NCBI RefSeq assembly: GCF_030013595.1
Contig: NZ_CP122768.1
DNA: 64,000 nt
Direction: 5' to 3' (one strand)
Origin: Escherichia coli
GTDB lineage: Bacteria > Pseudomonadota > Gammaproteobacteria > Enterobacterales > Enterobacteriaceae
Positions 2,663-18,199 of the stretch are shown in pieces. A program made the position numbers and the translations under genes. Position 1 is the stretch's first letter; every line of letters begins with the position of its first letter. Below the pieces are notes generated by a model. That model did no database searches. It saw only the letters and a list, made by a program, of their open reading frames with translations, and was not told the origin of the DNA.

Positions 2663-3177
2663 GTTCTCCCCGTATTCTGGCCTGTGTGATGCCAGTGTAA
2701 ATTCATGTCAAAAAGTGTCAGCGAGAAAATTTACACCTGAAAAAGTCTGTCATGAAACAGTTTTATGACAAGACATCAAAAAAATGTCAAAAACGTGATC
2801 TTTCTTCAGCTTTTCAGAATATTGAGTACCAGGAAGTCAATATCAATTCTGGGACACATATGCATTTACCATTAAAACCGGGCACAACAAGCTGTTCAGT
2901 CTCAATCCATACCCCGTGTTTTATCAATATCAGAATAAGAATATCTGCGGATAAATAAAAAAGGAATGTCGAGGGAGCTTACCGCAGAGGGCTCTCCACC
3001 TCACAAACCATTTACAAAAATGATACCGGCATATCTTTGGTCCCTGTCACAACCAGACATTGACAATCCAATATAACCCCAAATATATTTCGGGTAAGAA
3101 GTCTGGGATTTATACAGATATACTGTCTGTTATTACTATTTAATTATATAATTGTATTGCATACATAAGAGGCACTA

Positions 3178-3567
3178 ATGAAACGTTATATAAAATGGTT
3201 TGCCATCACAATTTTTATCAGTATGTTGAGTGCCTGTGCCCGTACGGCCCCAGTGCAACAGATAAGCACCACTGTCAGTGTGGGTCATACTCAGGAGCAG
3301 GTTAAAAATGCCATTTTGAAAGCAGGTGCGCAGCGCAAGTGGATTATGACGCAAGTGTCCCCTGGAGTTATTAAAGCTCGCTATCAAACACGAAATCACG
3401 TTGCAGAGGTTCGTATTACATATACAGCTACCTACTATAACATCAAATATGACAGTAGCCTGAATCTGCAGGCTTCTGATGGAAAAATTCATAAAAACTA
3501 TAACCGCTGGGTGCGTAACCTAGATAAAGATATACAGGTTAACTTATCTACAGGAGCAACGTTATAG
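3178..3567 (+). CDS. Small predicted lipoprotein, first gene of the lipid-biosynthesis cluster region
   Basis: 129-aa ORF with signal peptide and lipobox (ISMLSAC); lies in visibly AT-rich DNA immediately upstream of the cluster methyltransferase. Confidence 0.6.
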   Translation: MKRYIKWFAITIFISMLSACARTAPVQQISTTVSVGHTQEQVKNAILKAGAQRKWIMTQVSPGVIKARYQTRNHVAEVRITYTATYYNIKYDSSLNLQASDGKIHKNYNRWVRNLDKDIQVNLSTGATL

Positions 3568-3631
3568 TGATGCTGATATCGGGCTGGAATGGCCCGATAG
3601 TATTTAACTTTCTCTATAAGAATGGTTATAT

Positions 3632-4690
3632 ATGTACGAACAGGACACGCTCAGCGCACTGGATGCCATCACCGAAGCACAGCGGATTGCCTTTGCTCCT
3701 ATGCTTTTCCAGGCAGCTTTGTGCCTGCGCAATGCAGGAATATTAGATTATTTGGATCAACAGGGTAAACAGGGAGCTCCCCTTAATGCGATTACTGAGC
3801 ACACAGTCCTGAATGAATATGCCGTGGGTGTGTTACTGGATATGGGCTTAAGCGGGCGAATTATTACCTGTAAAGAGGGAATTTATTACCTGGCGAAAAT
3901 CGGTCATTACCTCCTGCATGACACTATGACTCGCGTGAATATGGATTTCACCCAGGATGTCTGTTACCAGGGGCTCTTCTTCCTTGCCGATTCACTCAAT
4001 GAAGGAAAACCTTCCGGGTTAAAAGTATTTGGCGACTGGCCGACGATATATCCGGCACTTTCGCAATTACCAGACGCCGCACGTGATAGCTGGTTTGCGT
4101 TTGATCATTACTATTCAGATGGCGCATTTAACGCCGCACTGCCTTATGTATTCGCCAACAACCCCACAACCTTGTACGATGTGGGTGGCAATACGGGTAA
4201 GTGGGCTTTGCGCTGCTGCAAATTCAATGAAAACATCGCCGTTACGTTATTAGATCTGCCACAACAAATCGTACTGGCGAAAGAAAATATCGCGAATGCA
4301 GGTTTTTCTGATCGCATAGATTTCCATGCGGTGGATATGCTAAGCGATGCCCCATTACCAGGCGAGGCTGATATCTGGTGGATGAGCCAATTTTTAGACT
4401 GTTTTTCACCCGAACAAATAATTAGCATACTCAGCAAAATTGCCAGCGTAATGAAGCCTGGCGCAAAACTTTGCATCATGGAGTTGTTCTGGGATGCACA
4501 GCGGTTTGAAGCGACATCGTTTAGCCTGAATGCATCCTCACTTTATTTTACCTGCATGGCAAACGGTAACAGCCGTTTCTATAGTGCAGAGAAATTTTAC
4601 GACTATCTGAATAAAGCAGGATTCCAGGTAGCAGAGTGTCACGATAATTTAGGCGTTGGGCATACACTTTTGATATGCCAAAAGAAATAA
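3632..4690 (+). CDS. SAM-dependent methyltransferase (APE-cluster methyltransferase-like)
   Basis: 352-aa ORF with SAM-binding motif LYDVGGNTGKWA; position matches the methyltransferase of aryl-polyene clusters. Confidence 0.75.
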   Translation: MYEQDTLSALDAITEAQRIAFAPMLFQAALCLRNAGILDYLDQQGKQGAPLNAITEHTVLNEYAVGVLLDMGLSGRIITCKEGIYYLAKIGHYLLHDTMTRVNMDFTQDVCYQGLFFLADSLNEGKPSGLKVFGDWPTIYPALSQLPDAARDSWFAFDHYYSDGAFNAALPYVFANNPTTLYDVGGNTGKWALRCCKFNENIAVTLLDLPQQIVLAKENIANAGFSDRIDFHAVDMLSDAPLPGEADIWWMSQFLDCFSPEQIISILSKIASVMKPGAKLCIMELFWDAQRFEATSFSLNASSLYFTCMANGNSRFYSAEKFYDYLNKAGFQVAECHDNLGVGHTLLICQKK

Positions 4691-4730
4691 TCGTCACTTA
4701 ATAATTTTGGTTTACCGCGGGCGCGCGTTG

Positions 4731-5453
4731 ATGAAATTTGCATTAAATATTACCAACTGGCAGGCACTGGCGCCTGGACTTAGCGATGTGCAGCAATGGC
4801 AAGCATGGTCGCGCCAGCCGTGGGCGATTGACCCTGCCGCGCCGTTGGCAAAATTAAGTGAACTGCCAATGATGACCGCTCGTCGTCTCAGTTCAGGCAG
4901 CAAACTGGCTGTTGAATGCGGTCTGACAATGCTACGCCGCCATCAGCCAGACGCTGTTTTGTATACCAGTCGTCATGGCGAACTGGAGCGCAATTACCGC
5001 ATTGTTCATGCACTGGCAACCGAACAGGCGCTTTCTCCGACGGACTTCGCGCTTTCCGTACACAACTCTTCCGTGGGTAACCTGACCATTGTGGCCAAAC
5101 AGCCGATCGTTTCGTCATCGCTTTCGGCTGGTCGCGACAGTTTCCAGCAAGGTTTGTGTGAAGTGCTTAGCCTGCTACAAGCGGGATACCAGCGCGTGTT
5201 GATGGTCGATTTTGATGGCTTTCTACCTGAGTTTTATCACCCGCAACTGCCCGCAGAAATGCCTACCTGGCCGTACGCCGTCGCGCTGGTGATTGAAGCT
5301 GGCGATGACTGGCAATGTGAAACGCAGCCAGCCATTGCGGTAAATGAAACAACACTGCCGCAAAGCATCTTGTTTTTACAGCACTATTTACAAAATGCAG
5401 ATGCTTTTTCACTGCCTGGCGAGCGCGTGCAATGGCGCTGGAGCCGCAGATGA
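4731..5453 (+). CDS. Beta-ketoacyl-synthase-like protein (short KS-like, possible chain-length-factor partner)
   Basis: ORF track starts at TTG 4707; ATG at 4731 (MKFALNITNW) is more plausible. About 240 aa, shorter than a catalytic KS. Confidence 0.6.
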   Translation: MKFALNITNWQALAPGLSDVQQWQAWSRQPWAIDPAAPLAKLSELPMMTARRLSSGSKLAVECGLTMLRRHQPDAVLYTSRHGELERNYRIVHALATEQALSPTDFALSVHNSSVGNLTIVAKQPIVSSSLSAGRDSFQQGLCEVLSLLQAGYQRVLMVDFDGFLPEFYHPQLPAEMPTWPYAVALVIEAGDDWQCETQPAIAVNETTLPQSILFLQHYLQNADAFSLPGERVQWRWSRR

Positions 5454-6271
5454 GTAAGCTGATGTCGCGCCTGGGATGGGCATGGCGACTGGTCATGACC
5501 GGGTTATGTTTTGTCCTGTTTGGTCTCGGCGGCCTGCTGCTTTCAGTCGTGTGGTTTAACATATTGTTAGTTTTGGTGTGGGATACTTCCCGCCGCCGTC
5601 GTTTGGCACGTCGCAGCATTGCCGCCAGTTTTCGCCTGTTTTTAACTGTCGCGAAAGGGCTTGGCGTGCTGGATTATCGTATTGATGGCGCTGAAATTTT
5701 ACGTCAGGAACGCGGTTGCCTCGTCGTAGCCAATCATCCCACGCTGATCGATTACGTGCTGCTGGCATCAGTCATGCCAGAAACTGACTGCCTGGTGAAA
5801 AGCGCGCTGTTAAAAAATCCTTTTCTTGGCGGCGTCGTGCGAGCGGCAGATTATTTAATCAACAGCGAAGCAGAAACCCTGTTACCCCGCTGCCAACAGC
5901 GACTGGCACAGGGTGACACTATCCTGATTTTCCCCGAAGGCACACGAACGAAGCCCGGTGAAAAAATGACGTTACAGCGCGGTGCAGCGAATATTGCCGT
6001 GCGCTGCACCAGCGATTTACGCATCGTGACGATCGGCTGTAGCGAGCATCTGCTGGATAAACAAAGTAAGTGGTATGACGTCCCGCCTGCCAGGCCGTTT
6101 TTTACGGTTGAAGTCCGTGGGCGGGTAGAAATCAATAAATTTTACGATGCAACTTCACAAGAGCCGACGCTGGCTGCAAGACAGTTAAACCGGCATCTTT
6201 TGCTTCAATTACAGCAAGGTTGTTTACCTCTATCAGGAATAAATAATGCAAGCGCTTTATCTGGAAATTAA
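5450..6271 (+). CDS. Lysophospholipid/1-acyl-glycerol-3-phosphate acyltransferase family protein
   Basis: N-terminal membrane helix, acyltransferase motifs NHPTLIDYV (HX4D) and FPEGTR; ATG at 5450 overlaps the upstream stop (ATGA); the ORF track's alternative start is 5432. Confidence 0.8.
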   Translation: MSKLMSRLGWAWRLVMTGLCFVLFGLGGLLLSVVWFNILLVLVWDTSRRRRLARRSIAASFRLFLTVAKGLGVLDYRIDGAEILRQERGCLVVANHPTLIDYVLLASVMPETDCLVKSALLKNPFLGGVVRAADYLINSEAETLLPRCQQRLAQGDTILIFPEGTRTKPGEKMTLQRGAANIAVRCTSDLRIVTIGCSEHLLDKQSKWYDVPPARPFFTVEVRGRVEINKFYDATSQEPTLAARQLNRHLLLQLQQGCLPLSGINNASALSGN

Positions 6272-6503
6272 AAACCTCATCATCAGCACCCTCAATCTGG
6301 ACGACTTGACTCCTGATGATATTGATATCAATGCGCCACTGTTTGGCGACGGTTTAGGGCTGGACTCTATCGATGCACTGGAACTGGGACTGGCAGTAAA
6401 AAATGAGTACGGCATCGTGCTCTCTGCGGAAAGCGAAGAAATGCGTCAGCACTTTTTCTCCGTCGCCACTCTGGCCTCTTTCATTGCTGCGCAACGTGCC
6501 TGA
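6246..6503 (+). CDS. Acyl carrier protein (first of tandem pair)
   Basis: 85-aa acidic ORF with phosphopantetheine attachment motif GLDSID. Confidence 0.85.
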   Translation: MQALYLEIKNLIISTLNLDDLTPDDIDINAPLFGDGLGLDSIDALELGLAVKNEYGIVLSAESEEMRQHFFSVATLASFIAAQRA

Positions 6504-6514
6504 GGAAAACCATC

Positions 6515-6766
6515 ATGACAGACCAACAAACCATTTATCAGGAAGTCTCAGCCCTGCTGGTTAAGCTGTTTGAAATCGATCCGCAGGACATCAAACCTGA
6601 AGCGCGACTGTACGAAGATCTGGAACTGGACAGCATCGACGCCGTTGACATGATTGTGCACCTGCAAAAGAAAACCGGTAAGAAAATCAAGCCGGAAGAG
6701 TTTAAAGCAGTGCGTACAGTCCAGGATGTTGTCGAGGCTGTAGAACGCCTGCTACAAGAAGGCTAA
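6515..6766 (+). CDS. Acyl carrier protein (second of tandem pair)
   Basis: 83-aa acidic ORF with LELDSIDAV motif. Confidence 0.85.
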   Translation: MTDQQTIYQEVSALLVKLFEIDPQDIKPEARLYEDLELDSIDAVDMIVHLQKKTGKKIKPEEFKAVRTVQDVVEAVERLLQEG

Positions 6767-6767
6767 T

Positions 6768-7352
6768 TTGATGTCGGGCATTCGCTCGCTACCGATGATT
6801 AAGTTGCTGACCGGATTATTGCTGCTCGTCTGGCCTTTTTTAATCTGGCTAGGTTTGGTGCATAACAGCCTGCACTGGCTGTTGCCGCTGATGGCGCTGT
6901 TGCTTTTATTGCGCCTGCGCCAGCCCCGTCGCCAGACGGGGCCGCTCCAGGTCGTCACAAAAATCGTTGCTGTTGTGGGCATTGTATTGTGTGTCTCCAG
7001 TTTTCTGTTGAAAACGTACCAGTTACTGCTGTTTTACCCGGTAGTGGTTAACGCAGTCATGCTGGCGGTTTTTGGCGGTTCGCTGCGGTCGACAATGCCG
7101 ATAGTTGAGCGGCTGGCACGTTTGCAGGAGCCAGACCTCCCGGAAAAGGCCGTGCGATATACCCGCCGCGTAACGCAGGTCTGGTGCCTGTTTTTTATTT
7201 TCAATGGCAGTATTGCGTTATTTACCACCTTGTATGGCAACATGCCCTTGTGGACAGCCTGGAACGGTATCATTGCTTACCTTCTGATAGGTTTCCTGAC
7301 TGCAGGGGAATGGCTGATACGTCGTAAGATGATCAAACGGAAAACACCATGA
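6768..7352 (+). CDS. Small integral membrane protein of the cluster
   Basis: 194-aa ORF with several hydrophobic helices; no catalytic motif recognised. Confidence 0.6.
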   Translation: MMSGIRSLPMIKLLTGLLLLVWPFLIWLGLVHNSLHWLLPLMALLLLLRLRQPRRQTGPLQVVTKIVAVVGIVLCVSSFLLKTYQLLLFYPVVVNAVMLAVFGGSLRSTMPIVERLARLQEPDLPEKAVRYTRRVTQVWCLFFIFNGSIALFTTLYGNMPLWTAWNGIIAYLLIGFLTAGEWLIRRKMIKRKTP

Positions 7353-8707
7353 ATCAGACTCTCTCACTTTCACAGTGGTTGACAGCCTCTCGCCCTGTAA
7401 CAACTCCTGTTGCCTGGCTTGGGGAATATACCTGGACACTGGGGCATCTGCGGCATGATGTAGCGCTTTTGATCGACCATTTACGCGACCAGCCAGGCAA
7501 TCGCTGGGCACTTTGTTTTGAAAACAGCTATCTTTTTATTGTAGCGTTGTTGGCCACGCTACACTCAGGTAAAATCCCGGTAATCCCGGGCCATAATCGC
7601 GCCGCTTTGTTAAATGTACAACGCTCTTTGTTTGATTGCGTCCTGAGTGATAAAAGGCTGGGCTGGAACGGTCCACAGTTTGTTGTAAGCACATCTCACC
7701 AGATGACGACCAGCACGATAGCCTTTGATGATATTGCTTCTGACGCGTTTATTGAACTTTTCACATCGGGTTCAACCGGACAACCAAAACAAATTGCAAA
7801 ACCTGTTATCAGCCTTGATCAAGAAGCAAACATGCTGGCAACTCACTTTGCAGACCGACTACTGGGCTGTCGTTTTGTAGCATCCGTGATGCCTCAGCAC
7901 CTGTATGGGCTAACTTTCCGTATTTTTTTACCCATGGCACTTGGCCTGCCATTGCATGCCGCAATGCTCTGGTATTCTGAGCAACTTGCCGCATTAAGCC
8001 ATACCTACCGCTATGCCTTTGTCAGCAGCCCGGCGTTCCTTAAGCGACTCGACCTTCATCTGACGCCTCCCCCAGTGGAAATGATTCTCTCTGCCGGCGG
8101 TATGCTACCATGGCAGGATGTAGAGAAAACTTCCACCTGGCTGAATATATGGCCCGATGAAATCTATGGTAGTACCGAAACAGGTATTCTCGCATGGCGT
8201 TACCGTCAACAGGATAATATCCCCTGGTTTACTTTTTCTGATGTTCATCTTTCACAGGAAAGTGAGGGGGTTCGTGTCTTTTCGCCACTAATCCCTGCTG
8301 AAGGATTGGTGCTTGACGATATGTTGCAATTCAATGAAAACGGTCAGTTCCACCTGATCGGACGACGTGGTCGAGTGGTAAAAATAGAGGAGAAGCGGAT
8401 ATCACTGGTTGAAATCGAACAACGACTTCTGGCACTTGACGGTATTATGGATGTCGCTGCAATACCATTAATACGCAATGGCCGCCAGGCTATCGGTGTC
8501 GTGGTTGTACCAAATAAAGAGGCCCGTCAAATATGGCAATGCTCCGGAGGGAAAACTCTGGAGTTGTCCTGGCGCAAAGCACTATTACCATGGCTTGAAC
8601 CTGTTGCAGTACCTCGTTACTGGCGCATTATTGATGAAATACCAGTAAACAGTATGAACAAGCGTGTCTATGCGCAATTACAGGAGTTATTTCATGATAC
8701 GCCATGA
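7349..8707 (+). CDS. AMP-dependent synthetase/ligase (adenylating enzyme, probable starter-acid:ACP ligase)
   Basis: 452-aa ORF with AMP-binding motif TSGSTGQPKQ; ATGA overlap with upstream gene. Confidence 0.8.
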   Translation: MNQTLSLSQWLTASRPVTTPVAWLGEYTWTLGHLRHDVALLIDHLRDQPGNRWALCFENSYLFIVALLATLHSGKIPVIPGHNRAALLNVQRSLFDCVLSDKRLGWNGPQFVVSTSHQMTTSTIAFDDIASDAFIELFTSGSTGQPKQIAKPVISLDQEANMLATHFADRLLGCRFVASVMPQHLYGLTFRIFLPMALGLPLHAAMLWYSEQLAALSHTYRYAFVSSPAFLKRLDLHLTPPPVEMILSAGGMLPWQDVEKTSTWLNIWPDEIYGSTETGILAWRYRQQDNIPWFTFSDVHLSQESEGVRVFSPLIPAEGLVLDDMLQFNENGQFHLIGRRGRVVKIEEKRISLVEIEQRLLALDGIMDVAAIPLIRNGRQAIGVVVVPNKEARQIWQCSGGKTLELSWRKALLPWLEPVAVPRYWRIIDEIPVNSMNKRVYAQLQELFHDTP

Positions 8708-9047
8708 AATTGAGCGCCATCTGGTTCAACCGCAGGAGATGGAAATCGTTCTATACCTTGACCCGATGCTCTACTGGTTTAATGGTCATTTTGCCGTACA
8801 GCCTCTGTTACCAGGCGTGGCCCAGTTGGACTGGGTAATGCATTATGCTACCACGCTGCTTGCTCCGGGCTGGCGTTTTCGTAGTATCCAGAATGTTAAA
8901 TTTCTGGCGCCACTTATACCTGAGACGACTGTTACCCTGCAATTAACATGGCAGGAAACAAGTCAGGTACTCACTTTCTGCTATCAGCGTCACGACGGTG
9001 ACGCCCGCCACACCGCCAGTAGCGGGAAGATCCGTCTATGTCGGTAA
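8664..9047 (+). CDS. Hot-dog fold dehydratase/thioesterase-like protein
   Basis: About 120-aa ORF in the position of the small dehydratase of APE clusters; start may be the ATG at 8694. Confidence 0.55.
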   Translation: MSMRNYRSYFMIRHEIERHLVQPQEMEIVLYLDPMLYWFNGHFAVQPLLPGVAQLDWVMHYATTLLAPGWRFRSIQNVKFLAPLIPETTVTLQLTWQETSQVLTFCYQRHDGDARHTASSGKIRLCR

Positions 9048-10714
9048 ACTTTTCTCCCTGCGTGTTGATCCCCTGCTACAACCACGGCGCGATGATGCCG
9101 GGCGTGCTGGCGCGTCTTAAGCCATTTAATCTGCCCTGTATTGTGGTGGATGACGGCAGCGATGCCGCCACGCAACAGCAACTGGATAATCTGGTTAGCG
9201 AACAGCCTGGCGTGACCTTAATTCGCCTGGCAGAAAACGCAGGTAAAGGCGCAGCGGTGATGCGTGGCTTGCAGGCAGCGGCAGACGCAGGGTTCAGCCA
9301 TGCGGTGCAGGTGGATGCTGACGGTCAACATGCGATTGAAGATATCCCCAAACTGCTGGCACTCGCTGAACAACACCCTGTGGCGCTGATCTCCGGTCAG
9401 CCAATTTACGATGACTCCATTCCCCGCTCACGGCTGTACGGGCGCTGGGTCACCCACGTCTGGGTATGGATCGAAACGCTCTCCCTGCAACTGAAAGACA
9501 GCATGTGCGGTTTTCGCGTTTATCCGGTTGCGCCGACGCTGCAACTGGCAAAACGCGCCACCATCGGCAAGCGGATGGATTTCGACACCGAAGTGATGGT
9601 GCGCCTCTACTGGCAGGGAAATACCAGCTATTTCGTGCCGACCCGCGTCACCTATCCACTGGACGGGCTTTCGCATTTTGATGCCCTGAAAGATAACGTC
9701 CGCATCTCGCTCATGCACACGCGTCTGTTTTTCGGCATGTTGCCGCGTATTCCTTCACTGCTGATGTGCCACTCTTCCAGCCACTGGGCGCGGCAGAGTG
9801 AAGTTAAAGGGTTATGGGGAATGCGCCTGATGCTGCTGGTCTGGCGTCTGCTGGGAAGAACGGCGTTTACCGCGCTGCTTTACCCGGTGGTTGGCGTCTA
9901 CTGGCTCACCGCTGCTCGTGCGCGTAAAGCGTCGCAAGACTGGCTCGCCCGTGTGCGCCAACAACAACCACAGGCAGCAAAAATCAACAGCTATCAGCAC
10001 TTTCTACGTTTCGGCAACGCCATGCTCGACAAAATCGCCAGCTGGCGCGGCGAGCTGCAACTCGGGCGTGATGTGCTGTTTGCGCCAGGCGCAGAAGCGG
10101 CGCTTGACGTCCGCGATCCGCGCGGCAAATTGCTGCTGGCCTCACATCTTGGCGATGTGGAAGTGTGCCGGGCGCTGGCAAAAATTGAGGGCTACAAAAC
10201 CATTAACGCGCTGGTGTTTAGCGAAAACGCCCAACGCTTTAAACAGATAATGCAGGAGATGGCTCCCCAGGCAGGCATTAACCTGATGCCGGTAACAGAT
10301 ATCGGCCCGGAAACCGCCATCCTGCTGAAAGAGAAGCTGGATAACGGCGAATGGGTGGCGATTGTCGGTGACCGCATCGCCGTCACCCCGCAACGCGGCG
10401 GCGACTGGCGCGTCTGCTGGAGTCCGTTTATGGGCCAGCCTGCGCCCTTCCCACAGGGGCCGTTTATTCTCGCCTCTATTTTGCGCTGCCCGGTGAATCT
10501 GATTTTCGCCCTACGCCAGCACGGCAAGCTGCATATTCACTGCGAAACCTTTGCCGACCCGCTGCTGTTGCCGCGTGGCGAACGCCAACAGGCGCTGCAA
10601 AACGCTATCGACCACTACGCCGCGCGTCTGGAACATTACGCGCTCCAGTCGCCCCTCGACTGGTTTAATTTTTTCGATTTCTGGCAACTGCCGGAAATTC
10701 AGGACAAGGAGTAA
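9038..10714 (+). CDS. Fusion protein: family-2 glycosyltransferase N-terminal domain plus lipid-A-type (LpxL/HtrB-like) acyltransferase C-terminal domain
   Basis: N-terminus CVLIPCYNH...VVDDGSDAAT...VQVDADGQH (GT2 DxD-type motifs); C-terminal about 330 aa with membrane anchor and acyltransferase-like region. Confidence 0.7.
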   Translation: MSVNFSPCVLIPCYNHGAMMPGVLARLKPFNLPCIVVDDGSDAATQQQLDNLVSEQPGVTLIRLAENAGKGAAVMRGLQAAADAGFSHAVQVDADGQHAIEDIPKLLALAEQHPVALISGQPIYDDSIPRSRLYGRWVTHVWVWIETLSLQLKDSMCGFRVYPVAPTLQLAKRATIGKRMDFDTEVMVRLYWQGNTSYFVPTRVTYPLDGLSHFDALKDNVRISLMHTRLFFGMLPRIPSLLMCHSSSHWARQSEVKGLWGMRLMLLVWRLLGRTAFTALLYPVVGVYWLTAARARKASQDWLARVRQQQPQAAKINSYQHFLRFGNAMLDKIASWRGELQLGRDVLFAPGAEAALDVRDPRGKLLLASHLGDVEVCRALAKIEGYKTINALVFSENAQRFKQIMQEMAPQAGINLMPVTDIGPETAILLKEKLDNGEWVAIVGDRIAVTPQRGGDWRVCWSPFMGQPAPFPQGPFILASILRCPVNLIFALRQHGKLHIHCETFADPLLLPRGERQQALQNAIDHYAARLEHYALQSPLDWFNFFDFWQLPEIQDKE

Positions 10715-10717
10715 AGG

Positions 10718-11140
10718 GTGCTTAACGATCCCCGATTTACCGCTGAAGTCGAGCTGACCATTCCCTTTCACGACGTCGATATGATGGGCGTGGCCTGGCA
10801 CGGTAACTATTTTCGCTACTTTGAAGTGGCCCGCGAGGCGCTGCTCAACCAGTTCAATTACGGCTATCGGCAGATGAAAGAGTCCGGTTATTTGTGGCCA
10901 GTGGTCGATGCGCGGGTGAAATATCGCCACGCCCTCACCTTTGAGCAACGCATCCGCGTGCGTGCGCATATCGAAGAGTTCGAAAACCGTCTGCGGATTG
11001 GCTATCAGATTTTCGATGCCGAAACGGGCAAACGCGCCACCACCGGATACACCATTCAGGTCGCAGTCGACGAGCAAAGCCGCGAACTGTGCTTTGTCAG
11101 CCCCGATATTCTGTTTGAACGCATGGGAGTCAAACCATGA
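10718..11140 (+). CDS. 4HBT-type acyl-CoA/ACP thioesterase (hot-dog fold)
   Basis: 140-aa ORF with GTG start; resembles YbgC/4-hydroxybenzoyl-CoA thioesterase family. Confidence 0.7.
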   Translation: MLNDPRFTAEVELTIPFHDVDMMGVAWHGNYFRYFEVAREALLNQFNYGYRQMKESGYLWPVVDARVKYRHALTFEQRIRVRAHIEEFENRLRIGYQIFDAETGKRATTGYTIQVAVDEQSRELCFVSPDILFERMGVKP

Positions 11141-11742
11141 AATTTTTACCGCTGCTGGCGCTGCTGATTAGCCCGTTTGTGAGCGCCCTGACCCGGGACG
11201 ATCTTCAGCAACGCTTTACCGAACAACCGGTGATCCGCGCCCATTTCGATCAAACCCGGACGATTAAAGATCTGCCGCAGCCGCTGCGATCTCAGGGTCA
11301 GATGTTGATCGCCCGCGACCAGGGGTTATTGTGGGATCAAACCTCACCGTTCCCCATGCAACTATTACTGGACGATAAACGCATGGTGCAGGTGATCAAC
11401 GGTCAGCCGCCGCAAATCATCACGGCAGAAAACAACCCACAGATGTTCCAGTTTAACCACCTGCTGCGCGCGCTGTTCCAGGCCGATCGCAAAGTGCTGG
11501 AACAAAACTTCCGCGTCGAATTTGCCGACAAAGGCGAAGGCCGCTGGACGCTGCGCCTGACGCCGACCACCACGCCGCTGGACAAAATTTTCAACACCAT
11601 CGATCTCGCCGGGCAAACCTATCTGGAGAGCATTCAGCTTAATGATAAACAGGGCGATCGCACCGATATCGCTCTTACCCAACATCAACTGACACCAGCG
11701 CAACTGACCGATGACGAACGCCAACGCTTTGCCACCCAGTAA
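11137..11742 (+). CDS. LolA-like outer-membrane lipoprotein carrier protein
   Basis: 201-aa ORF with signal peptide; LolA-like by recall of family features and position beside the MMPL exporter. Confidence 0.65.
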   Translation: MKFLPLLALLISPFVSALTRDDLQQRFTEQPVIRAHFDQTRTIKDLPQPLRSQGQMLIARDQGLLWDQTSPFPMQLLLDDKRMVQVINGQPPQIITAENNPQMFQFNHLLRALFQADRKVLEQNFRVEFADKGEGRWTLRLTPTTTPLDKIFNTIDLAGQTYLESIQLNDKQGDRTDIALTQHQLTPAQLTDDERQRFATQ

Positions 11743-14029
11743 ACGCCCCGCGCTGTTATGGGGGCTAGTCTGCCTGGTCATGGCGGCGGCGTTGCTGATC
11801 CTGCTGCCACAATCACGACTGAACAGTAGCGTGCTGGCTATGTTACCCAAACAGGCGATGGGCGATATTCCTCCGGCGCTGAATGACGGCTTTATGCAGC
11901 GTCTGGACCGCCAACTGGTGTGGCTGGTCAGCCCCGGTAAAGAGGCTAATCCCAGGGTGGCTCAGGAGTGGCTGACGCTGCTGCAAAAATCCGCTGCGCT
12001 CGGCGACATTAAAGGGCCAATGGATGCCGCCAGCCAGCAGGCGTGGGGAGCGTTTTTCTGGCAGCACCGCAACGGCCTGATTGACCCCGACACCCGCGCC
12101 CGCCTGCAAAATGGCGGCGAAGCGCAGGCGAAGTGGATCCTCTCCCAGCTTTATTCTGCGTTCTCCGGGGTAAGCGGCAAGGAGCTGCAAAACGATCCGC
12201 TGATGTTAATGCGCGGCTCGCAGCTGGCGATGGCGAAAAATGGCCAGCGTTTACGACTAATGGACGGCTGGCTGGTGACGCAGGATCCCCAGGGCAATTA
12301 CTGGTATCTGCTGCACGGCGAACTGGCGGGATCGTCGTTTGATATGCAGCAAACCCACCAGCTCATCACGACCCTGAATACGCTGGAAAAGGCTCTGAAA
12401 ACGCGTTACCCGCAGGCGCAGTTGCTCTCACGCGGCACGGTGTTTTACAGCGATTACGCCAGCCAACAGGCGAAGCAGGATATCTCCACCCTGGGCGTGG
12501 CAACGCTGCTGGGGGTGATATTGCTGATTGTGGCGGTGTTCCGCTCTTTGCGCCCGTTGCTGCTTTGCGTGATTTCCATCGGCATCGGCGCGCTGGCGGG
12601 AACGGCCGCCACATTGTTGATTTTCGGTGAATTACACCTGATGACGCTGGTGATGAGCATGAGCGTTATCGGCATTTCCGCTGACTACACGCTCTATTAT
12701 CTCACCGAGCGGATGGTGCACGGCAACGACGTTTCGCCGTGGCAAAGCCTGGCGAAAGTACGCAATGCCCTGCTGCTGGCGCTGCTCACAACCGTGGCGG
12801 CATATCTGATTATGATGCTCGCCCCCTTCCCCGGCATTCGCCAGATGGCGATTTTTGCCGCCGTCGGGTTGAGCGCCTCTTGTCTGACCGTCCTGTTCTG
12901 GCATCCGTGGCTGTGCCGTGGTCTGCCGGTGCGCCCGGTTCCGGCGATGGCGCTGATGCTACGCTGGCTGGCAGCGTGGCGGCGCAATAAAAAACTGTCG
13001 CGGGGTCTGCCCGTTGCGCTGGCGCTGTTTTCGCTGGCGGGGATGTCAATGCTGCGCGTCGATGACGATATCTCGCAGTTACAGGCGCTGCCGCAGCACA
13101 TTCTGGCGCAGGAGAAAGCCATTACCGCCCTGACCGGACAAAGCGTCGATCAAAAATGGTTTGTAGTTTACGGCGACTCCCCACAGCAAACATTGCGGCG
13201 ACTGGAGAAATATACCGCCTCACTTGAGTATGCGAAAAAAGAGGGGCTTATCAGCAACTACCGCACTATTCCGCTGAACTCCCTGGCGCGGCAGGAGGAA
13301 GACTTAGACCTGCTGAAAACGGCTGCCCCGACGGTAACAAAAGCACTGCAAAATGCAGGGCTGACGGCGGTGAAACCAGATCTCAACGCCATGCCGGTGA
13401 AGGTCGATGAATGGCTGGCAAGCCCCGCCAGTGAAGGCTGGCGTCTGCTGTGGCTGACGCTGGAAAACGGCGAAAGCGGTGTACTGGTGCCGGTTGAAGG
13501 GGTTAAAAGTAGCGCATTGTTGCAGGAAATCGCCAGCTATTACCCTTGCGGCATTGCCTGGGTTGATCGCAAAAGCTCCTTTGATGAATTGTTCGCACTT
13601 TACCGCTACGTCTTAACCGGCTTGTTGCTGGTGGCGCTGGCAGTGATTGCCTGCGGCGCAGTGGCCCGTCTCGGCTGGCGCAAAGGGCTTATCAGCCTGG
13701 TGCCTTCGGTGCTTTCGCTGGGCTGTGGTCTGGCGGTGCTGGCGATGAGCGGGCAGGCGGTGAATCTCTTTTCGCTGCTGGCGCTGGTGCTGGTGCTTGG
13801 CATCGGTATCAACTACACGCTGTTTTTCAGTAATCCGCGCGGTACACCGTTAACTTCGCTACTGGCGATCGCGCTGGCAATGCTCACCACCTTGCTGACG
13901 CTGGGAATGCTGGTATTCAGCGCCACCCAGGCCATCAGCAGTTTTGGCATTGTGCTGGTGAGCGGTATTTTCACCGCCTTCCTGCTTTCGCCGCTGGCTA
14001 TGCCCGATAAAAAGAGAACAAAAAAATGA
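11711..14029 (+). CDS. MMPL/RND-superfamily membrane exporter
   Basis: About 770-aa ORF with two blocks of transmembrane helices separated by soluble domains; exact start codon uncertain. Confidence 0.8.
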   Translation: MTNANALPPSKRPALLWGLVCLVMAAALLILLPQSRLNSSVLAMLPKQAMGDIPPALNDGFMQRLDRQLVWLVSPGKEANPRVAQEWLTLLQKSAALGDIKGPMDAASQQAWGAFFWQHRNGLIDPDTRARLQNGGEAQAKWILSQLYSAFSGVSGKELQNDPLMLMRGSQLAMAKNGQRLRLMDGWLVTQDPQGNYWYLLHGELAGSSFDMQQTHQLITTLNTLEKALKTRYPQAQLLSRGTVFYSDYASQQAKQDISTLGVATLLGVILLIVAVFRSLRPLLLCVISIGIGALAGTAATLLIFGELHLMTLVMSMSVIGISADYTLYYLTERMVHGNDVSPWQSLAKVRNALLLALLTTVAAYLIMMLAPFPGIRQMAIFAAVGLSASCLTVLFWHPWLCRGLPVRPVPAMALMLRWLAAWRRNKKLSRGLPVALALFSLAGMSMLRVDDDISQLQALPQHILAQEKAITALTGQSVDQKWFVVYGDSPQQTLRRLEKYTASLEYAKKEGLISNYRTIPLNSLARQEEDLDLLKTAAPTVTKALQNAGLTAVKPDLNAMPVKVDEWLASPASEGWRLLWLTLENGESGVLVPVEGVKSSALLQEIASYYPCGIAWVDRKSSFDELFALYRYVLTGLLLVALAVIACGAVARLGWRKGLISLVPSVLSLGCGLAVLAMSGQAVNLFSLLALVLVLGIGINYTLFFSNPRGTPLTSLLAIALAMLTTLLTLGMLVFSATQAISSFGIVLVSGIFTAFLLSPLAMPDKKRTKK

Positions 14030-14610
14030 TCAAATCCACATTCTGGCGAGCGTTCGCCCTGACCGCTACGCTTATCCTCACCGGCTGTAGCCACTCGCAA
14101 CCAGAACAGGAAGGCCGCCCGCAGGCGTGGCTGCAACCTGGCACGCGCATCACGCTGCCGGCACCAGGGATTTCACCCGCAGTCAATTCGCAGCAACTGT
14201 TGACCGGCAGCTTCAACGGCAAAACCCAGTCGCTGTTAGTGATGCTTAACGCCGACGATCAGAAAATCACCCTTGCCGGGCTGTCGTCGGTCGGCATTCG
14301 CCTGTTTCTGGTGACCTACGATGCGCAAGGGCTACGCGCCGAGCAATCCATCGTCGTCCCACAGTTACCGCCCGCAAGTCAGGTACTGGCTGACGTGATG
14401 CTCAGCCACTGGCCGATTAGCGCCTGGGAGGCGCAACTTCCCGCAGGATGGACACTTCGCGACAACGGTGACAAACGCGAGCTGCGTAACGCCAGCGGCA
14501 AACTGGTCACGGAAATCACCTATCTGAATCGCCAGGGAAAACGCGTGCCAATCAGAATTGAGCAGCATGTCTTTAAATACCACATCACCATTCAATACTT
14601 AGGTGAATGA
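14026..14610 (+). CDS. Lipoprotein of unknown function
   Basis: 194-aa ORF with lipobox LTGC; ATGA overlap with upstream exporter gene. Confidence 0.65.
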   Translation: MIKSTFWRAFALTATLILTGCSHSQPEQEGRPQAWLQPGTRITLPAPGISPAVNSQQLLTGSFNGKTQSLLVMLNADDQKITLAGLSSVGIRLFLVTYDAQGLRAEQSIVVPQLPPASQVLADVMLSHWPISAWEAQLPAGWTLRDNGDKRELRNASGKLVTEITYLNRQGKRVPIRIEQHVFKYHITIQYLGE

Positions 14611-14611
14611 T

Positions 14612-15781
14612 ATGATTTATATTTCCGCCGTCGGCATGATCAACGCCCTGGGAAATAACCTTGACGAAATCGCAGCCAACCTGGCTCGCGGTGTCGCCCC
14701 CGGCATGCGCCCACGCGCAGGCTGGTTGCAGGGGCATCCGCAGGCGGTCCTGGCTGGCGTGGATGGCGAGCTTCCGCTTATCCCGGAAAAATTCGCTGCG
14801 CATCGCTCGCGCAACAATCAGATCCTGCTGGCGGCGCTGGCGCAGCTCCAGCCGCAGGTTGATGACGCTATCGCGAAATATGGCTGCGAGCGCATCGCGA
14901 TTGTGCTTGGCACCAGCACCTCCGGCCTGCATGAAGGCGACACGCACGTTAACCTGCACACCCACGGGCAGCCGAGCACCACGTGGCACTATGCACAACA
15001 AGAACTCGGCGATCCGTCGCGTTTTCTCAGCCACTGGCTGGCGCTCGACGGCCCGGCTTATACCCTTTCAACCGCCTGCTCCTCCAGTGCCAGAGCAATG
15101 ATCAGCGGGCGCAGGCTTATCGAAGCGGGGCTGGTCGATGCCGCCATTGTGGGTGGCGCAGACACCCTGAGCCGAATGCCGATTAACGGTTTTCACAGCC
15201 TCGAATCGCTCTCGCCAACCTTATGTCAGCCGTTTAGTCGTGACCGCGCAGGTATCACCATTGGTGAAGGGGCGGGGCTAATGCTGCTGACCCGGGAACC
15301 GCAGCCCATCGCGTTGCTGGGCGTTGGTGAATCGAGCGACGCTTACCATATTTCAGCCCCGCATCCGCAGGGCGAAGGAGCGATCCGCGCTATTAATCAG
15401 GCGCTGACCGATGCGCAGCTTACGCCGGATGACGTCGGCTATATCAACCTGCACGGCACCGCCACACAGCTCAACGACCAGATTGAATCAATGGTGGTTA
15501 ACGCCCTGTTTGGCGAACGCGTACCGTGCAGCTCCACCAAACATTTGACCGGACACACGCTCGGCGCGGCTGGCATTACCGAGGCGGCAATTAGTATGTT
15601 GATTTTACAGCGTGATTTACCGCTGCCCGCTCAGGACTTCAGCCTGTCGCCGCGCGATCCCACGCTGCCACCGTGTGGCATTATCGAAAAACCGCAGCCG
15701 CTGGCACGTCCGGTGATCCTGTCCAATTCCTTCGCCTTTGGCGGCAATAACGCCAGCATTCTGCTCGGGAGGGTTTCGTGA
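14612..15781 (+). CDS. Beta-ketoacyl-ACP synthase (FabF/FabB-like KS)
   Basis: About 390-aa ORF with KS catalytic-region motifs (active-site Cys context STACSS, HGTAT, GHTLGAAG); ATG at 14612 preceded by AGGTGA. Confidence 0.85.
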   Translation: MIYISAVGMINALGNNLDEIAANLARGVAPGMRPRAGWLQGHPQAVLAGVDGELPLIPEKFAAHRSRNNQILLAALAQLQPQVDDAIAKYGCERIAIVLGTSTSGLHEGDTHVNLHTHGQPSTTWHYAQQELGDPSRFLSHWLALDGPAYTLSTACSSSARAMISGRRLIEAGLVDAAIVGGADTLSRMPINGFHSLESLSPTLCQPFSRDRAGITIGEGAGLMLLTREPQPIALLGVGESSDAYHISAPHPQGEGAIRAINQALTDAQLTPDDVGYINLHGTATQLNDQIESMVVNALFGERVPCSSTKHLTGHTLGAAGITEAAISMLILQRDLPLPAQDFSLSPRDPTLPPCGIIEKPQPLARPVILSNSFAFGGNNASILLGRVS

Positions 15782-16242
15782 GCCACTATTTATCCCCCGG
15801 CGCTTATCTGCCCCACGACGCGCCCATGTTACTGCTGGAAGACGTGGTGAGCGTCAGCGATGACAGCGCGGTGTGCCGCGTGACGGTTTCGCCCAGTGGC
15901 GTACTGGCACCGTTTCTCGACCCGGACGGCAATCTCCCTGGCTGGTTTGCCCTTGAACTGATGGCGCAAACCGTCGGCGTCTGGTCTGGCTGGCATCGCC
16001 ACCAGCAGGGCAAAAACAGTATTGAGTTAGGGATGATACTGGGCGCGCGTGAATTGCTTTGCACCACTGGCATTCTGCCCGCAGGCCAGACGCTGACCAT
16101 TACCGTCAAACTGCTGATGCAGGACGATCGCTTCGGCAGCTTTGAGTGCAGCATCAACGACGGCGAGGCGACGGGCCGCATTAACACCTTCCAGCCGACC
16201 GCGGAAGAACTTACCACCCTGTTTCAACAAGGAGCGTCCTGA
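15778..16242 (+). CDS. FabA/FabZ-like 3-hydroxyacyl-ACP dehydratase (hot-dog fold)
   Basis: 154-aa ORF, GTG start overlapping upstream stop. Confidence 0.7.
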   Translation: MSHYLSPGAYLPHDAPMLLLEDVVSVSDDSAVCRVTVSPSGVLAPFLDPDGNLPGWFALELMAQTVGVWSGWHRHQQGKNSIELGMILGARELLCTTGILPAGQTLTITVKLLMQDDRFGSFECSINDGEATGRINTFQPTAEELTTLFQQGAS

Positions 16243-16973
16243 TGAGTCGTTCAGTTCTGGTTACTGGTGCCAGCAAAGGCATTGGTCGCGCCATCGCCTG
16301 CAAGCTTGCGGCAGACGGCTTTAACATTGGCGTTCACTATCACCGTGACGCCACAGGCGCTCAGGAAACGCTGAATGCCATTGTCGCCAACGGGGGTAAC
16401 GGGCGTTTGCTCAGTTTCGACGTCGCAAACCGCGAACAGTGTCGGGAAGTGCTGGAGCATGAGATCGCGCAACACGGTGCCTGGTACGGCGTGGTCAGTA
16501 ACGCCGGGATCGCCCGCGATGCCGCTTTTCCGGCTTTAAGCGATGACGACTGGGATGCGGTGATCCACACCAACCTCGACAGTTTCTACAACGTCATTCA
16601 GCCGTGCATTATGCCAATGATCGGCGCGCGCCAGGGTGGGCGCATCATCACGCTGTCCTCGGTTTCCGGCGTAATGGGCAATCGCGGCCAGGTGAATTAC
16701 AGCGCAGCCAAAGCCGGAATTATCGGCGCAACAAAAGCACTGGCTATCGAACTCGCAAAGCGCAAAATCACCGTCAATTGCATCGCGCCAGGGCTTATTG
16801 ATACCGGGATGATCGAAATGGAAGAAAGCGCTCTGAAAGAGGCAATGTCGATGATCCCCATGAAACGTATGGGCCAGGCGGAAGAAGTTGCCGGGCTTGC
16901 CAGTTATTTAATGTCTGATATTGCGGGTTACGTCACCCGCCAGGTTATTTCCATCAACGGAGGGATGTTATGA
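16242..16973 (+). CDS. 3-oxoacyl-ACP reductase (FabG-like short-chain dehydrogenase)
   Basis: 243-aa ORF with NAD(P)-binding TGASKGIGRA and SDR catalytic YSAAK motif. Confidence 0.9.
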   Translation: MSRSVLVTGASKGIGRAIACKLAADGFNIGVHYHRDATGAQETLNAIVANGGNGRLLSFDVANREQCREVLEHEIAQHGAWYGVVSNAGIARDAAFPALSDDDWDAVIHTNLDSFYNVIQPCIMPMIGARQGGRIITLSSVSGVMGNRGQVNYSAAKAGIIGATKALAIELAKRKITVNCIAPGLIDTGMIEMEESALKEAMSMIPMKRMGQAEEVAGLASYLMSDIAGYVTRQVISINGGML

Positions 16974-18199
16974 CACGTCGCGTAGTGATTACAGGAATGG
17001 GCGGCGTGACTGCCTTTGGTGAAAACTGGCAGGACGTTTCTGCACGCTTACTGGCGTATGAAAATGCGGTGCGCAAAATGCCGGAGTGGCAGGTCTACGA
17101 TGGGCTGCACACCCTGCTTGGCGCGCCTGTTGATGATTTCACGCTACCGGAGCACTACACCCGCAAGCGTATCCGTGCGATGGGCCGCGTGTCGCAAATG
17201 TCGACCCGTGCCAGCGAGCTGGCGTTAGAGCAGGCAGGGTTGATTGGCGATCCGATATTAACCAGCGGCGAAACGGGCATTGCGTACGGTTCATCGACCG
17301 GCAGTACCGGTCCGGTGAGCGAATTTGCCACCATGCTGACTGAAAAGCACACGAACAACATCACTGGCACCACCTATGTGCAGATGATGCCGCACACCAC
17401 CGCTGTTAATACTGGCCTCTTTTTCGGCCTGCGCGGGCGGGTGATCCCAACCTCCAGCGCCTGTACCTCCGGCAGCCAGGCGATCGGTTATGCGTGGGAA
17501 GCCATTCGCCACGGTTATCAAACGGTGATGGTTGCCGGTGGTGCCGAAGAGTTATGCCCTTCAGAAGCAGCAGTGTTTGATACCCTTTTTGCCACCAGCC
17601 AGCACAATGATGCGCCGAAAACCACACCTTCACCGTTCGATGAAAACCGCGACGGACTGGTGATTGGTGAAGGCGCAGGTACGCTCATTCTCGAAGAACT
17701 GGAGCATGCCAAAGCGCGCGGCGCGACCATTTACGGTGAAATCGTCGGCTTTGCGACGAACTGCGACGCGGCACATATTACCCAGCCGCAGCGCGAAACC
17801 ATGCAGTATTGTATGGAGCAATCGCTGAAAATCGCAGGGTTAAGCGCACAAGATATCGGCTATATTTCAGCGCATGGTACGGCGACCGATCGCGGTGATA
17901 TGGCAGAAAGTCTGGCGACAGCAACCATTTACGGTGATAATGTGCCGCTCTCCTCGCTGAAAAGTTATTTTGGTCATACGCTTGGTGCCTGTGGCGCGCT
18001 CGAAGCCTGGATGAGTCTGCAAATGATGCGCGAAGGTTGGTTTGCGCCTACGCTAAACCTGAATAAACCAGACCCGAATTGTGGCGCGCTGGATTACATC
18101 ATGCATGAAGCCCGCAGGGTTGATTGTGAGTTTTTGCAGAGTAACAACTTTGCCTTTGGCGGCATTAATACATCCATCATTATTAAGCGCTGGCCCTGA
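16970..18199 (+). CDS. Beta-ketoacyl-ACP synthase (FabB/FabF-like KS)
   Basis: 409-aa ORF with KS motifs (SSACTSG, HGTAT, GHTLGACG); ATGA overlap with reductase gene. Confidence 0.9.
   Translation: MTRRVVITGMGGVTAFGENWQDVSARLLAYENAVRKMPEWQVYDGLHTLLGAPVDDFTLPEHYTRKRIRAMGRVSQMSTRASELALEQAGLIGDPILTSGETGIAYGSSTGSTGPVSEFATMLTEKHTNNITGTTYVQMMPHTTAVNTGLFFGLRGRVIPTSSACTSGSQAIGYAWEAIRHGYQTVMVAGGAEELCPSEAAVFDTLFATSQHNDAPKTTPSPFDENRDGLVIGEGAGTLILEELEHAKARGATIYGEIVGFATNCDAAHITQPQRETMQYCMEQSLKIAGLSAQDIGYISAHGTATDRGDMAESLATATIYGDNVPLSSLKSYFGHTLGACGALEAWMSLQMMREGWFAPTLNLNKPDPNCGALDYIMHEARRVDCEFLQSNNFAFGGINTSIIIKRWP

Follow-up and report, generated by a model that had tools for sequence, protein, structure and literature searches.

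ApeJ of the Escherichia coli aryl polyene cluster, a glycosyltransferase fused to a predicted LpxL/LpxM/PatA-type acyltransferase

The apeJ gene and its two modules

The window analysed here, a stretch of 64,000 nucleotides (nt) of Escherichia coli DNA (contig NZ_CP122768.1), carries an aryl polyene (APE) cluster in which the open reading frame (ORF) list of the window showed an intact ORF of 558 amino acids (aa), running from ATG to stop at 9038..10714 on the + strand. This ORF is apeJ of the E. coli APE cluster. Its product shares 554 of 558 residues with ApeJ (c1194) of E. coli CFT073 in an alignment without gaps, only V115A, V138I, E384Q and T450N separating the two proteins, and CFT073 ApeJ is listed as a ‘glycosyltransferase / acyltransferase’ in Table 1 of Johnston et al. 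(PMC8253772). In RefSeq relatives the ORF is annotated as a coding sequence (CDS), whose product name is only ‘glycosyltransferase family 2 protein’. An overlap of 10 nt joins the apeJ start to the end of the gene before it, and the gene after it begins 4 nt past the apeJ stop, a tight packing as in an operon. ORFs of 83-188 aa on the opposite strand within 9038-10714 were rejected as shadow ORFs of a GC-rich gene, and RefSeq annotates none there. Earlier publications already cover the gene, the description of its two domains and the role proposed for it, and no new biology is claimed here; the initial annotation of the window had read both domains correctly but recognized neither the known APE cluster nor the named protein. 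The features of apeJ are as follows.

9038..10714, + strand: apeJ, 558-aa ORF of a predicted bifunctional glycosyltransferase/acyltransferase, stop codon included (ORF list; 554/558 to c1194; RefSeq CDS)
9038..9766, + strand: glycosyltransferase family 2 (GT2) domain of GT-A fold, aa 1-243, of the lipid-phosphate glycosyltransferase type as judged from Pfam, NCBIfam, PDB, Foldseek and the L002 alignment described below
9314..9331, + strand: D93-A-D95-G-Q97-H98, DxDxQ motif, by homology binding metal and nucleotide sugar (conservation; DPMS alignment)
9767..9811, + strand: interdomain linker, aa 244-258 (predicted local distance difference test, pLDDT, 58-65; split-gene boundary in L002)
9812..10711, + strand: predicted LpxL/LpxM/PatA-type acyltransferase domain, aa 259-558 (from family, profile and fold)
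10145..10162, + strand: H370-L-G-D-V-E375, catalytic H-x4-E motif assigned by alignment (conservation; aligns with LpxM HFGTWE)
10367..10375, + strand: G444-D445-R446, second invariant motif of the acyltransferase (D445 and R446 invariant in profiles A1, A2 and A3; aligns with LpxM P-D-H)

The fusion of the two modules is genuine and not a sequencing artefact. Of 5426 complete E. coli genomes, 821 contained a match over at least 80% of the 1677-nt gene, always on the chromosome and with at least 95% identity in every matching record; several complete E. coli chromosomes matched the DNA of the ORF with 100% identity, and Klebsiella, Citrobacter, Kluyvera and Pantoea have orthologues of 563 aa. 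The single-ORF fusion reported in the initial annotation is thus borne out by these genomes and orthologues, and the joining of two genes by a sequencing error, which it had named as a refutation, is contradicted. The AlphaFold2 model is confidently folded (pLDDT 91-92), aa 244-258 being its only internal stretch of low confidence.

The two modules also occur as separate genes. At locus L002 (37% GC), a GT2 gene of 256 aa and an acyltransferase gene of 326 aa overlap by 4 nt and lie between apeI and apeK. As the L002 GT2 protein aligns to aa 3-243 of ApeJ and the L002 acyltransferase to aa 249-558, the break falls within the linker. Two more distant stand-alone acyltransferase homologues were found in the APE-type clusters L007 and L008/L009, again directly downstream of a separate GT2 gene. 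The GT2 and acyltransferase modules therefore form a conserved two-module unit that is sometimes fused and in which the GT2 module always comes first.

Several further arrangements were seen among these relatives. The predicted protein P0127 (1185 aa) combines ApeH (AMP-binding), ApeI dehydratase, GT2 and Lip_A_acyltrans modules in one chain. At L008 (5550-7241), ApeH and ApeI are fused (563 aa) and a tryptophan-halogenase-like gene lies between the MMPL and DUF3261 genes. At L007 (6288-8912), the GT2 gene is closely preceded by a GtrA_DPMS_TM gene (PF04138) and a HAD hydrolase gene, and an aromatic ammonia-lyase gene lies downstream of the acyltransferase gene. GtrA-like proteins are usual companions of polyprenyl-phosphate glycosyltransferases, and the GtrA-like gene of L007 suggests that some cluster variants may process the sugar-lipid differently.

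Evidence for the two domains

The N-terminal domain was readily assigned. PF00535 (GT2) matched aa 8-132 with 73.5 bits against a gathering cutoff of 23.3 (E 2.6e-20), and DDGSD and DADGQH, the motifs on which the initial annotation had based its GT2-like domain, are indeed present at aa 38-42 and 93-98, respectively. In an alignment of 47 fused homologues, D93, D95, Q97 and H98 were 100% conserved, as were the basic residues R132, R136, R160 and R189, which are candidate binders of a lipid phosphate. The ApeJ motif DADGQH aligns with DADLQH of dolichol-phosphate mannose synthase (DPMS, 5mlz), which together with ArnC was the closest solved structure by sequence (E 2.2e-7 for 5mlz), and corresponds to D94, D96 and Q98 of GtrB, which bind the metal and the UDP-sugar (PMC12698845). 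Foldseek matched the GT2 half to ArnC, GtrB and DPMS with a GT-A fold at an E-value of about 1e-9, the AlphaFold2 pLDDT being 94-98 across the domain. The top NCBIfam model was PpgS, a polyprenyl-phospho-N-acetylgalactosamine (GalNAc) synthase (E 8e-15), but its equivalog cutoff was missed (54.9 versus 370 bits), as was that of ArnC (24.9 versus 529 bits). Of the characters of the lipid-phosphate GT2 subfamily, ApeJ thus shows the DxDxQ motif and the closest similarity, but neither a C-terminal transmembrane anchor nor an equivalog-level score.

The C-terminal domain was visible only through its relatives. A single-sequence phmmer search of the C-terminal half against the PDB gave noise such as designed ankyrin repeat proteins (DARPins), and a close-homologue search returned only sequences of 81-99% identity, which are of no use for profiles, so that an exhaustive search of representatives was needed. 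Using aa 240-558 as query over 1.84 billion cluster representatives, this search yielded 3009 relatives at E ≤ 0.001; among the best 150 of them, 85 were stand-alone proteins of about 300-330 aa, 44 were of fused length and six were longer. Profile A1 was built from ApeJ as the query and the 85 stand-alone proteins (86 members, the homologues being 32-47% identical). Of its members, 78 matched PF03279 (Lip_A_acyltrans), with a best E-value of 2.9e-19, even though E. coli ApeJ itself did not, and in the PDB the profile matched Acinetobacter baumannii LpxM (5kn7) with an E-value of 1.6e-7 and PatA with 0.014. Matches of the same profile to DARPin and ankyrin proteins were discarded as spurious, being caused by an ankyrin-like ‘LLLASHLGDVEV’ stretch. 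A trimmed profile, A3, meant for a residue-level alignment with PatA, no longer matched PatA. The fold of the domain was that of the LpxL/LpxM/PatA family.

H370, G372, D445, R446 and G474 are invariant in A1, and E375 is conserved in at least 90% of its members. The A1 consensus sHlGnlE aligned on pHFGTWE of LpxM, where the glutamate aligned to E375 is the one substituted in PDB entry 5knk (‘catalytic residue substitution (E127A)’); a role of G444-D445-R446 in the acyltransferase is suggested by its conservation. The hydropathy profile revealed no clear transmembrane helix in this half, the peak being 1.39 over aa 264-293, and the pair of hydrophobic or amphipathic helices at its start (aa 259-291) probably serves in membrane docking.

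Judged by these sequence comparisons, the C-terminal half is a divergent acyltransferase of the LpxL/LpxM/PatA type. The resemblance to LpxL/HtrB proposed in the initial annotation consequently holds at the level of the family (78 of 86 members with PF03279; LpxM at 1.6e-7), whereas a direct Pfam search, which had been suggested as its check, does not reveal it. The term ‘lipid-A-type’ refers to fold and family only, and nothing points to lipid A as the substrate. What the present analysis adds is explicit evidence for an acyltransferase domain that is missed at the thresholds of standard annotation (RefSeq, Pfam and NCBIfam) and the naming of PatA, the mycobacterial phosphatidylinositol-mannoside acyltransferase, as the best mechanistic analogue: PatA is the best structural match and the closest functional counterpart of this half.

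Proposed role in APE lipid assembly

The APE lipid of Xenorhabdus doucetiae carries the APE as an ester on O-6 of a GalNAc whose anomeric carbon is connected via a phosphate to diacylglycerol, and the ΔapeJ mutant of this organism accumulates a diacyl-glycerol-3-phosphate precursor; ApeJ was proposed by Grammbitter et al. to be bifunctional, adding GalNAc and then acylating it with ApeE-bound APE (10.1101/2020.12.19.423268). The ΔapeJ mutant of E. coli CFT073 retains partial pigmentation and accumulates late pigmented intermediates (PMC8253772). Together with the domain evidence described above, these data make it likely, with a probability of roughly 0.8, that ApeJ is bifunctional, associated with the membrane, and responsible for the two final steps of APE lipid assembly.

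We infer the donor sugar, lipid acceptor, acyl donor and order of the steps as follows. In step 1, the GT2 domain would take a nucleotide sugar, probably UDP-GalNAc, by means of D93-x-D95-x-Q97 and a divalent metal, and would transfer the sugar to the phosphate of a phosphatidic-acid-like lipid provided by ApeD, a step suggested by the family and by the published genetics. In step 2, the acyltransferase domain would move the finished aryl-polyene chain from a thioester carrier, proposed to be the acyl carrier protein (ACP) ApeE, to O-6 of the sugar, with H370 as the general base assisted by E375 and possibly D445, much as PatA adds palmitate to O-6 of the mannose in phosphatidylinositol mannosides. 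ApeM (MMPL), ApeL (LolA-like) and ApeN would next take over the product and bring it to the outer membrane, and the fusion of the two domains in the order of their reactions presumably channels the glycolipid intermediate. If this holds, direct glycosylation of a phosphatidic-acid-type lipid would be an unusual switch of acceptor from polyprenyl phosphate. The suggestion made in the initial annotation, that a sugar-containing envelope lipid carries the pathway product and is exported by the LolA-like and MMPL neighbours, is in good agreement with the published model (10.1101/2020.12.19.423268; PMC8253772).

Several points weigh against this two-step role. Neither full-length ApeJ nor its C-terminal half (aa 251-558) matched PF03279 in Pfam even at E-values up to 0.1-1, and with NCBIfam the C-terminal half matched only the PatA model PRK07920 (phosphatidylinositol-mannoside acyltransferase), below threshold at E 0.002-0.0065. 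By hydropathy the GT2 domain is not followed by transmembrane helices, unlike in GtrB, ArnC and DPMS: no 19-residue window in aa 200-300 exceeded a Kyte-Doolittle value of 1.4, and helix 216-243 is amphipathic. The literature searched offered neither enzymology nor a structure of ApeJ, donor, acceptor and step order rest on the metabolite profiles of mutants from another genus, and the structure of the E. coli APE end product is unsolved (PMC8253772). Furthermore, the acyl chain could come from a coenzyme A (CoA) thioester, the kind of donor that PatA uses, instead of an ACP; the ApeK thioesterase and ApeH would allow for this.

A further difficulty lies in the configuration of the sugar. Inversion from a UDP-alpha-sugar should give a beta-linked sugar phosphate. 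GT2 enzymes of the DPMS/GtrB type act by an inverting displacement (PMC12698845), whereas the reported sugar of the APE lipid is alpha-GalNAc-1-phosphate (H-1 at 5.47 ppm, J 2.8 Hz, extra phosphorus coupling; 10.1101/2020.12.19.423268). An alpha product from a member of an inverting family leaves the chemistry of step 1 partly unexplained and counts against the two-step role as formulated; flagging this mismatch is the third addition of the present analysis. The GT2 domain may depart from the chemistry of its family, the donor may be unusual, or the route may differ from the published proposal. In the first case, the GT2 half would be unlike its inverting relatives and would act either with net retention onto diacylglycerol phosphate or by transferring GalNAc-1-phosphate from UDP-GalNAc to a lipid hydroxyl with release of UMP, which we regard as possible though doubtful. 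We know of no DxDxQ GT2 enzyme for which retention or sugar-1-phosphate transfer has a precedent.

An alternative reading is that the GT2 half makes undecaprenyl-phosphate-GalNAc as a periplasmic sugar donor, as PpgS, GtrB and ArnC do for their sugars, and that the glycerolipid is glycosylated elsewhere. A beta-linked product formed by inversion would agree with the family chemistry, the best relatives in sequence and fold all use polyprenyl phosphate, and in the split cluster L007 the GtrA_DPMS_TM gene lies two genes upstream of the GT2 gene. The E. coli cluster, however, contains neither a GT-C type transferase nor a GtrA protein according to Pfam and RefSeq, and ApeJ is missing the transmembrane helices that hold the polyprenyl-phosphate enzymes in the bilayer. 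A polyprenyl-phosphate sugar delivers its sugar without the phosphate, yet the product keeps the sugar-1-phosphate diester to glycerol. The accumulation of a phosphatidic-acid-like lipid in ΔapeJ likewise speaks against such a donor role, and the fusion argues that the product of the GT2 domain is the substrate of the acyltransferase. We therefore consider a periplasmic donor role improbable.

Even less probable is that the C-terminal half is a true late acyltransferase of lipid A, a paralogue of LpxL/HtrB/LpxM, so that the pigment would be anchored on lipid A or a derivative and the GT2 domain would decorate lipid A or a precursor. The domain does belong to the LpxL/LpxM family by profile and fold, and lipid A or a derivative had been put forward by Johnston et al. 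as a possible anchor before the structure of the lipid was known (PMC8253772). The sole full-length APE lipid structure found in the literature searched nevertheless has no lipid A part, the domain is a dedicated module of APE clusters always found beside the GT2 module, and identity to LpxM is only about 12-16%, PatA matching as well as LpxM.

The idea that apeJ results from a sequencing or assembly error that joined two genes, or that its C-terminal half is degenerate and inactive, is barely credible: although the halves are separate genes in some organisms and the E. coli C-terminal half falls below every curated domain threshold, the gene stands uninterrupted in 821 complete E. coli genomes, has 563-aa orthologues in several genera, shares its fused length with 44 of the best 150 cluster representatives, and encodes intact, conserved H-x4-E and G-D-R motifs in a confidently folded model.

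The APE cluster, its genomic setting and comparison with known systems

The APE cluster spans about 3.2-18.2 kb of the window and is complete from apeA to apeR. Its genes were called from Pfam scans of the neighbours and from the RefSeq annotation of an identical locus, and were named after Table 1 of Johnston et al. (PMC8253772). The cluster was also located in CFT073, where the gene order is the same. apeJ lies between apeI and apeK, flanked by an ApeI-like dehydratase and a 4HBT thioesterase as expected for a member of the cluster, which according to Pfam also holds chain-length factor/ketosynthase (CLF/KS) genes, two ACPs, the ApeP dehydratase (DH), a ketoreductase (KR), and LolA-like, MMPL and DUF3261 genes. 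The genes on either side of apeJ are listed here; those from apeA to apeI, except apeG, were identified by Pfam, RefSeq and the names in PMC8253772, and those from apeK to apeR by Pfam and RefSeq.

3178-3567, + strand: apeA
3632-4690, + strand: apeB, methyltransferase
4731-5453, + strand: apeC, chain-length factor
5450-6271, + strand: apeD, LPLAT acyltransferase
6246-6503, + strand: apeE, ACP
6515-6766, + strand: apeF, ACP
6771-7352 (start also placed at 6768), + strand: apeG, 194 aa (‘hypothetical’ in RefSeq; name from PMC8253772)
7349-8707, + strand: apeH, AMP-binding
8694-9047, + strand: apeI, dehydratase
10718-11140, + strand: apeK, 4HBT thioesterase
11137-11742, + strand: apeL, LolA-like
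11711-14029, + strand: apeM, MMPL/RND
14026-14610, + strand: apeN, DUF3261
14612-15781, + strand: apeO, KS
15778-16242, + strand: apeP, DH
16242-16973, + strand: apeQ, KR
16970-18199, + strand: apeR, KS

ApeG (194 aa, encoded between apeF and apeH) gave no Pfam match at E ≤ 0.01; in the literature it is described as a COG4648 ‘pyrophosphatase’ membrane protein with a speculative role in energy supply (PMC8253772), and it might bear on sugar-phosphate chemistry. A scan of the cluster for promoters and terminators gave counts not above those of shuffled sequence. A near-consensus sigma-70 promoter-like site (TTGACA, 18 nt, TATATT; 11/12) lies at 3060-3089 on the + strand, about 90 nt upstream of apeA, and the literature reports no dedicated regulator in the APE cluster.

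The region has the composition of an island, with a GC content of 53-60% over 8-18 kb (the APE cluster occupying 3178-18199) versus 44-47% just downstream (18-30 kb), and no more than 823 of the 5426 complete E. coli genomes (about 15%) carry the cluster; both the GC island and the patchy presence are consistent with horizontal acquisition. A search for a tRNA gene marking the island boundary found none in the window. Upstream of the cluster, at 1607-2662 on the - strand, lies an ORF for a two-partner-secretion transporter of the ShlB/FhaC type, truncated at 351 aa and comprising POTRA_2, POTRA_3 and the first part of the ShlB barrel; this gene and the adjoining hemagglutinin-repeat gene are frameshifted pseudogenes in near-identical RefSeq genomes. 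Between about 26500 and 44000 of the window, ORF lengths match those of cadB, cadA, dtpC, the lysine-tRNA ligase gene, dcuS, dcuR, dcuB and fumB. The first 20 kb of the window are identical in strain P13-6, which carries an approximately 20-kb CP4-type element (Ag43 adhesin, CbtA/YeeU toxin-antitoxin, IS2) between sugar-utilization genes and cadC; this element appears to be missing from the window.

Among the biosynthetic gene clusters of Gram-negative bacteria, APE clusters are described as some of the most widespread. Their lipids give protection from oxidative stress and promote the formation of biofilms in pathogens, for example uropathogenic E. coli (PMC8253772; PMC12871727). Since the role proposed for ApeJ is to attach the pigment to its membrane anchor, the enzyme would be a sensible target for blocking pigment display.

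Compared with known systems, ApeJ of the window resembles its counterparts of E. coli CFT073 and X. doucetiae in cluster position, length and two-domain architecture, and the apeJ genes of both organisms have been deleted in published work with phenotypes that fit a late role in lipid attachment. The strain context differs, the island lying here beside the cad and dcu genes and not at the CFT073 site.

With DPMS, GtrB, ArnC and PpgS, the GT2 half shares the DxDxQ(H) motif and the conserved basic residues downstream of it, and the lipid-phosphate acceptor of these enzymes fits the sugar-1-phosphate-lipid link of the APE lipid. ApeJ differs from them in having an acyltransferase in place of the C-terminal pair of transmembrane helices, and in that its presumed acceptor is diacylglycerol phosphate rather than polyprenyl phosphate.

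The acyltransferase half, in turn, differs from LpxL/HtrB and LpxM (PF03279; 5kn7) in missing the Pfam threshold and in having no clear N-terminal transmembrane anchor; whereas those enzymes belong to the lipid A pathway and act on Kdo2-lipid IVA, ApeJ belongs to a pigment cluster and its likely acceptor is a GalNAc-phosphoglycerolipid. PatA (5f2t, 5oce, 7ojt) shares only about 14-18% identity with ApeJ; it acylates O-6 of mannose, with His126 as the base and Glu200 in the relay (PMC8519569). PatA is a stand-alone enzyme that uses palmitoyl-CoA, whereas ApeJ is fused to a GT2 domain and its proposed donor is an ACP-bound aryl-polyene acyl chain, and the acceptor sugar is a mannosyl-inositol for PatA but would be GalNAc-1-phosphate for ApeJ.

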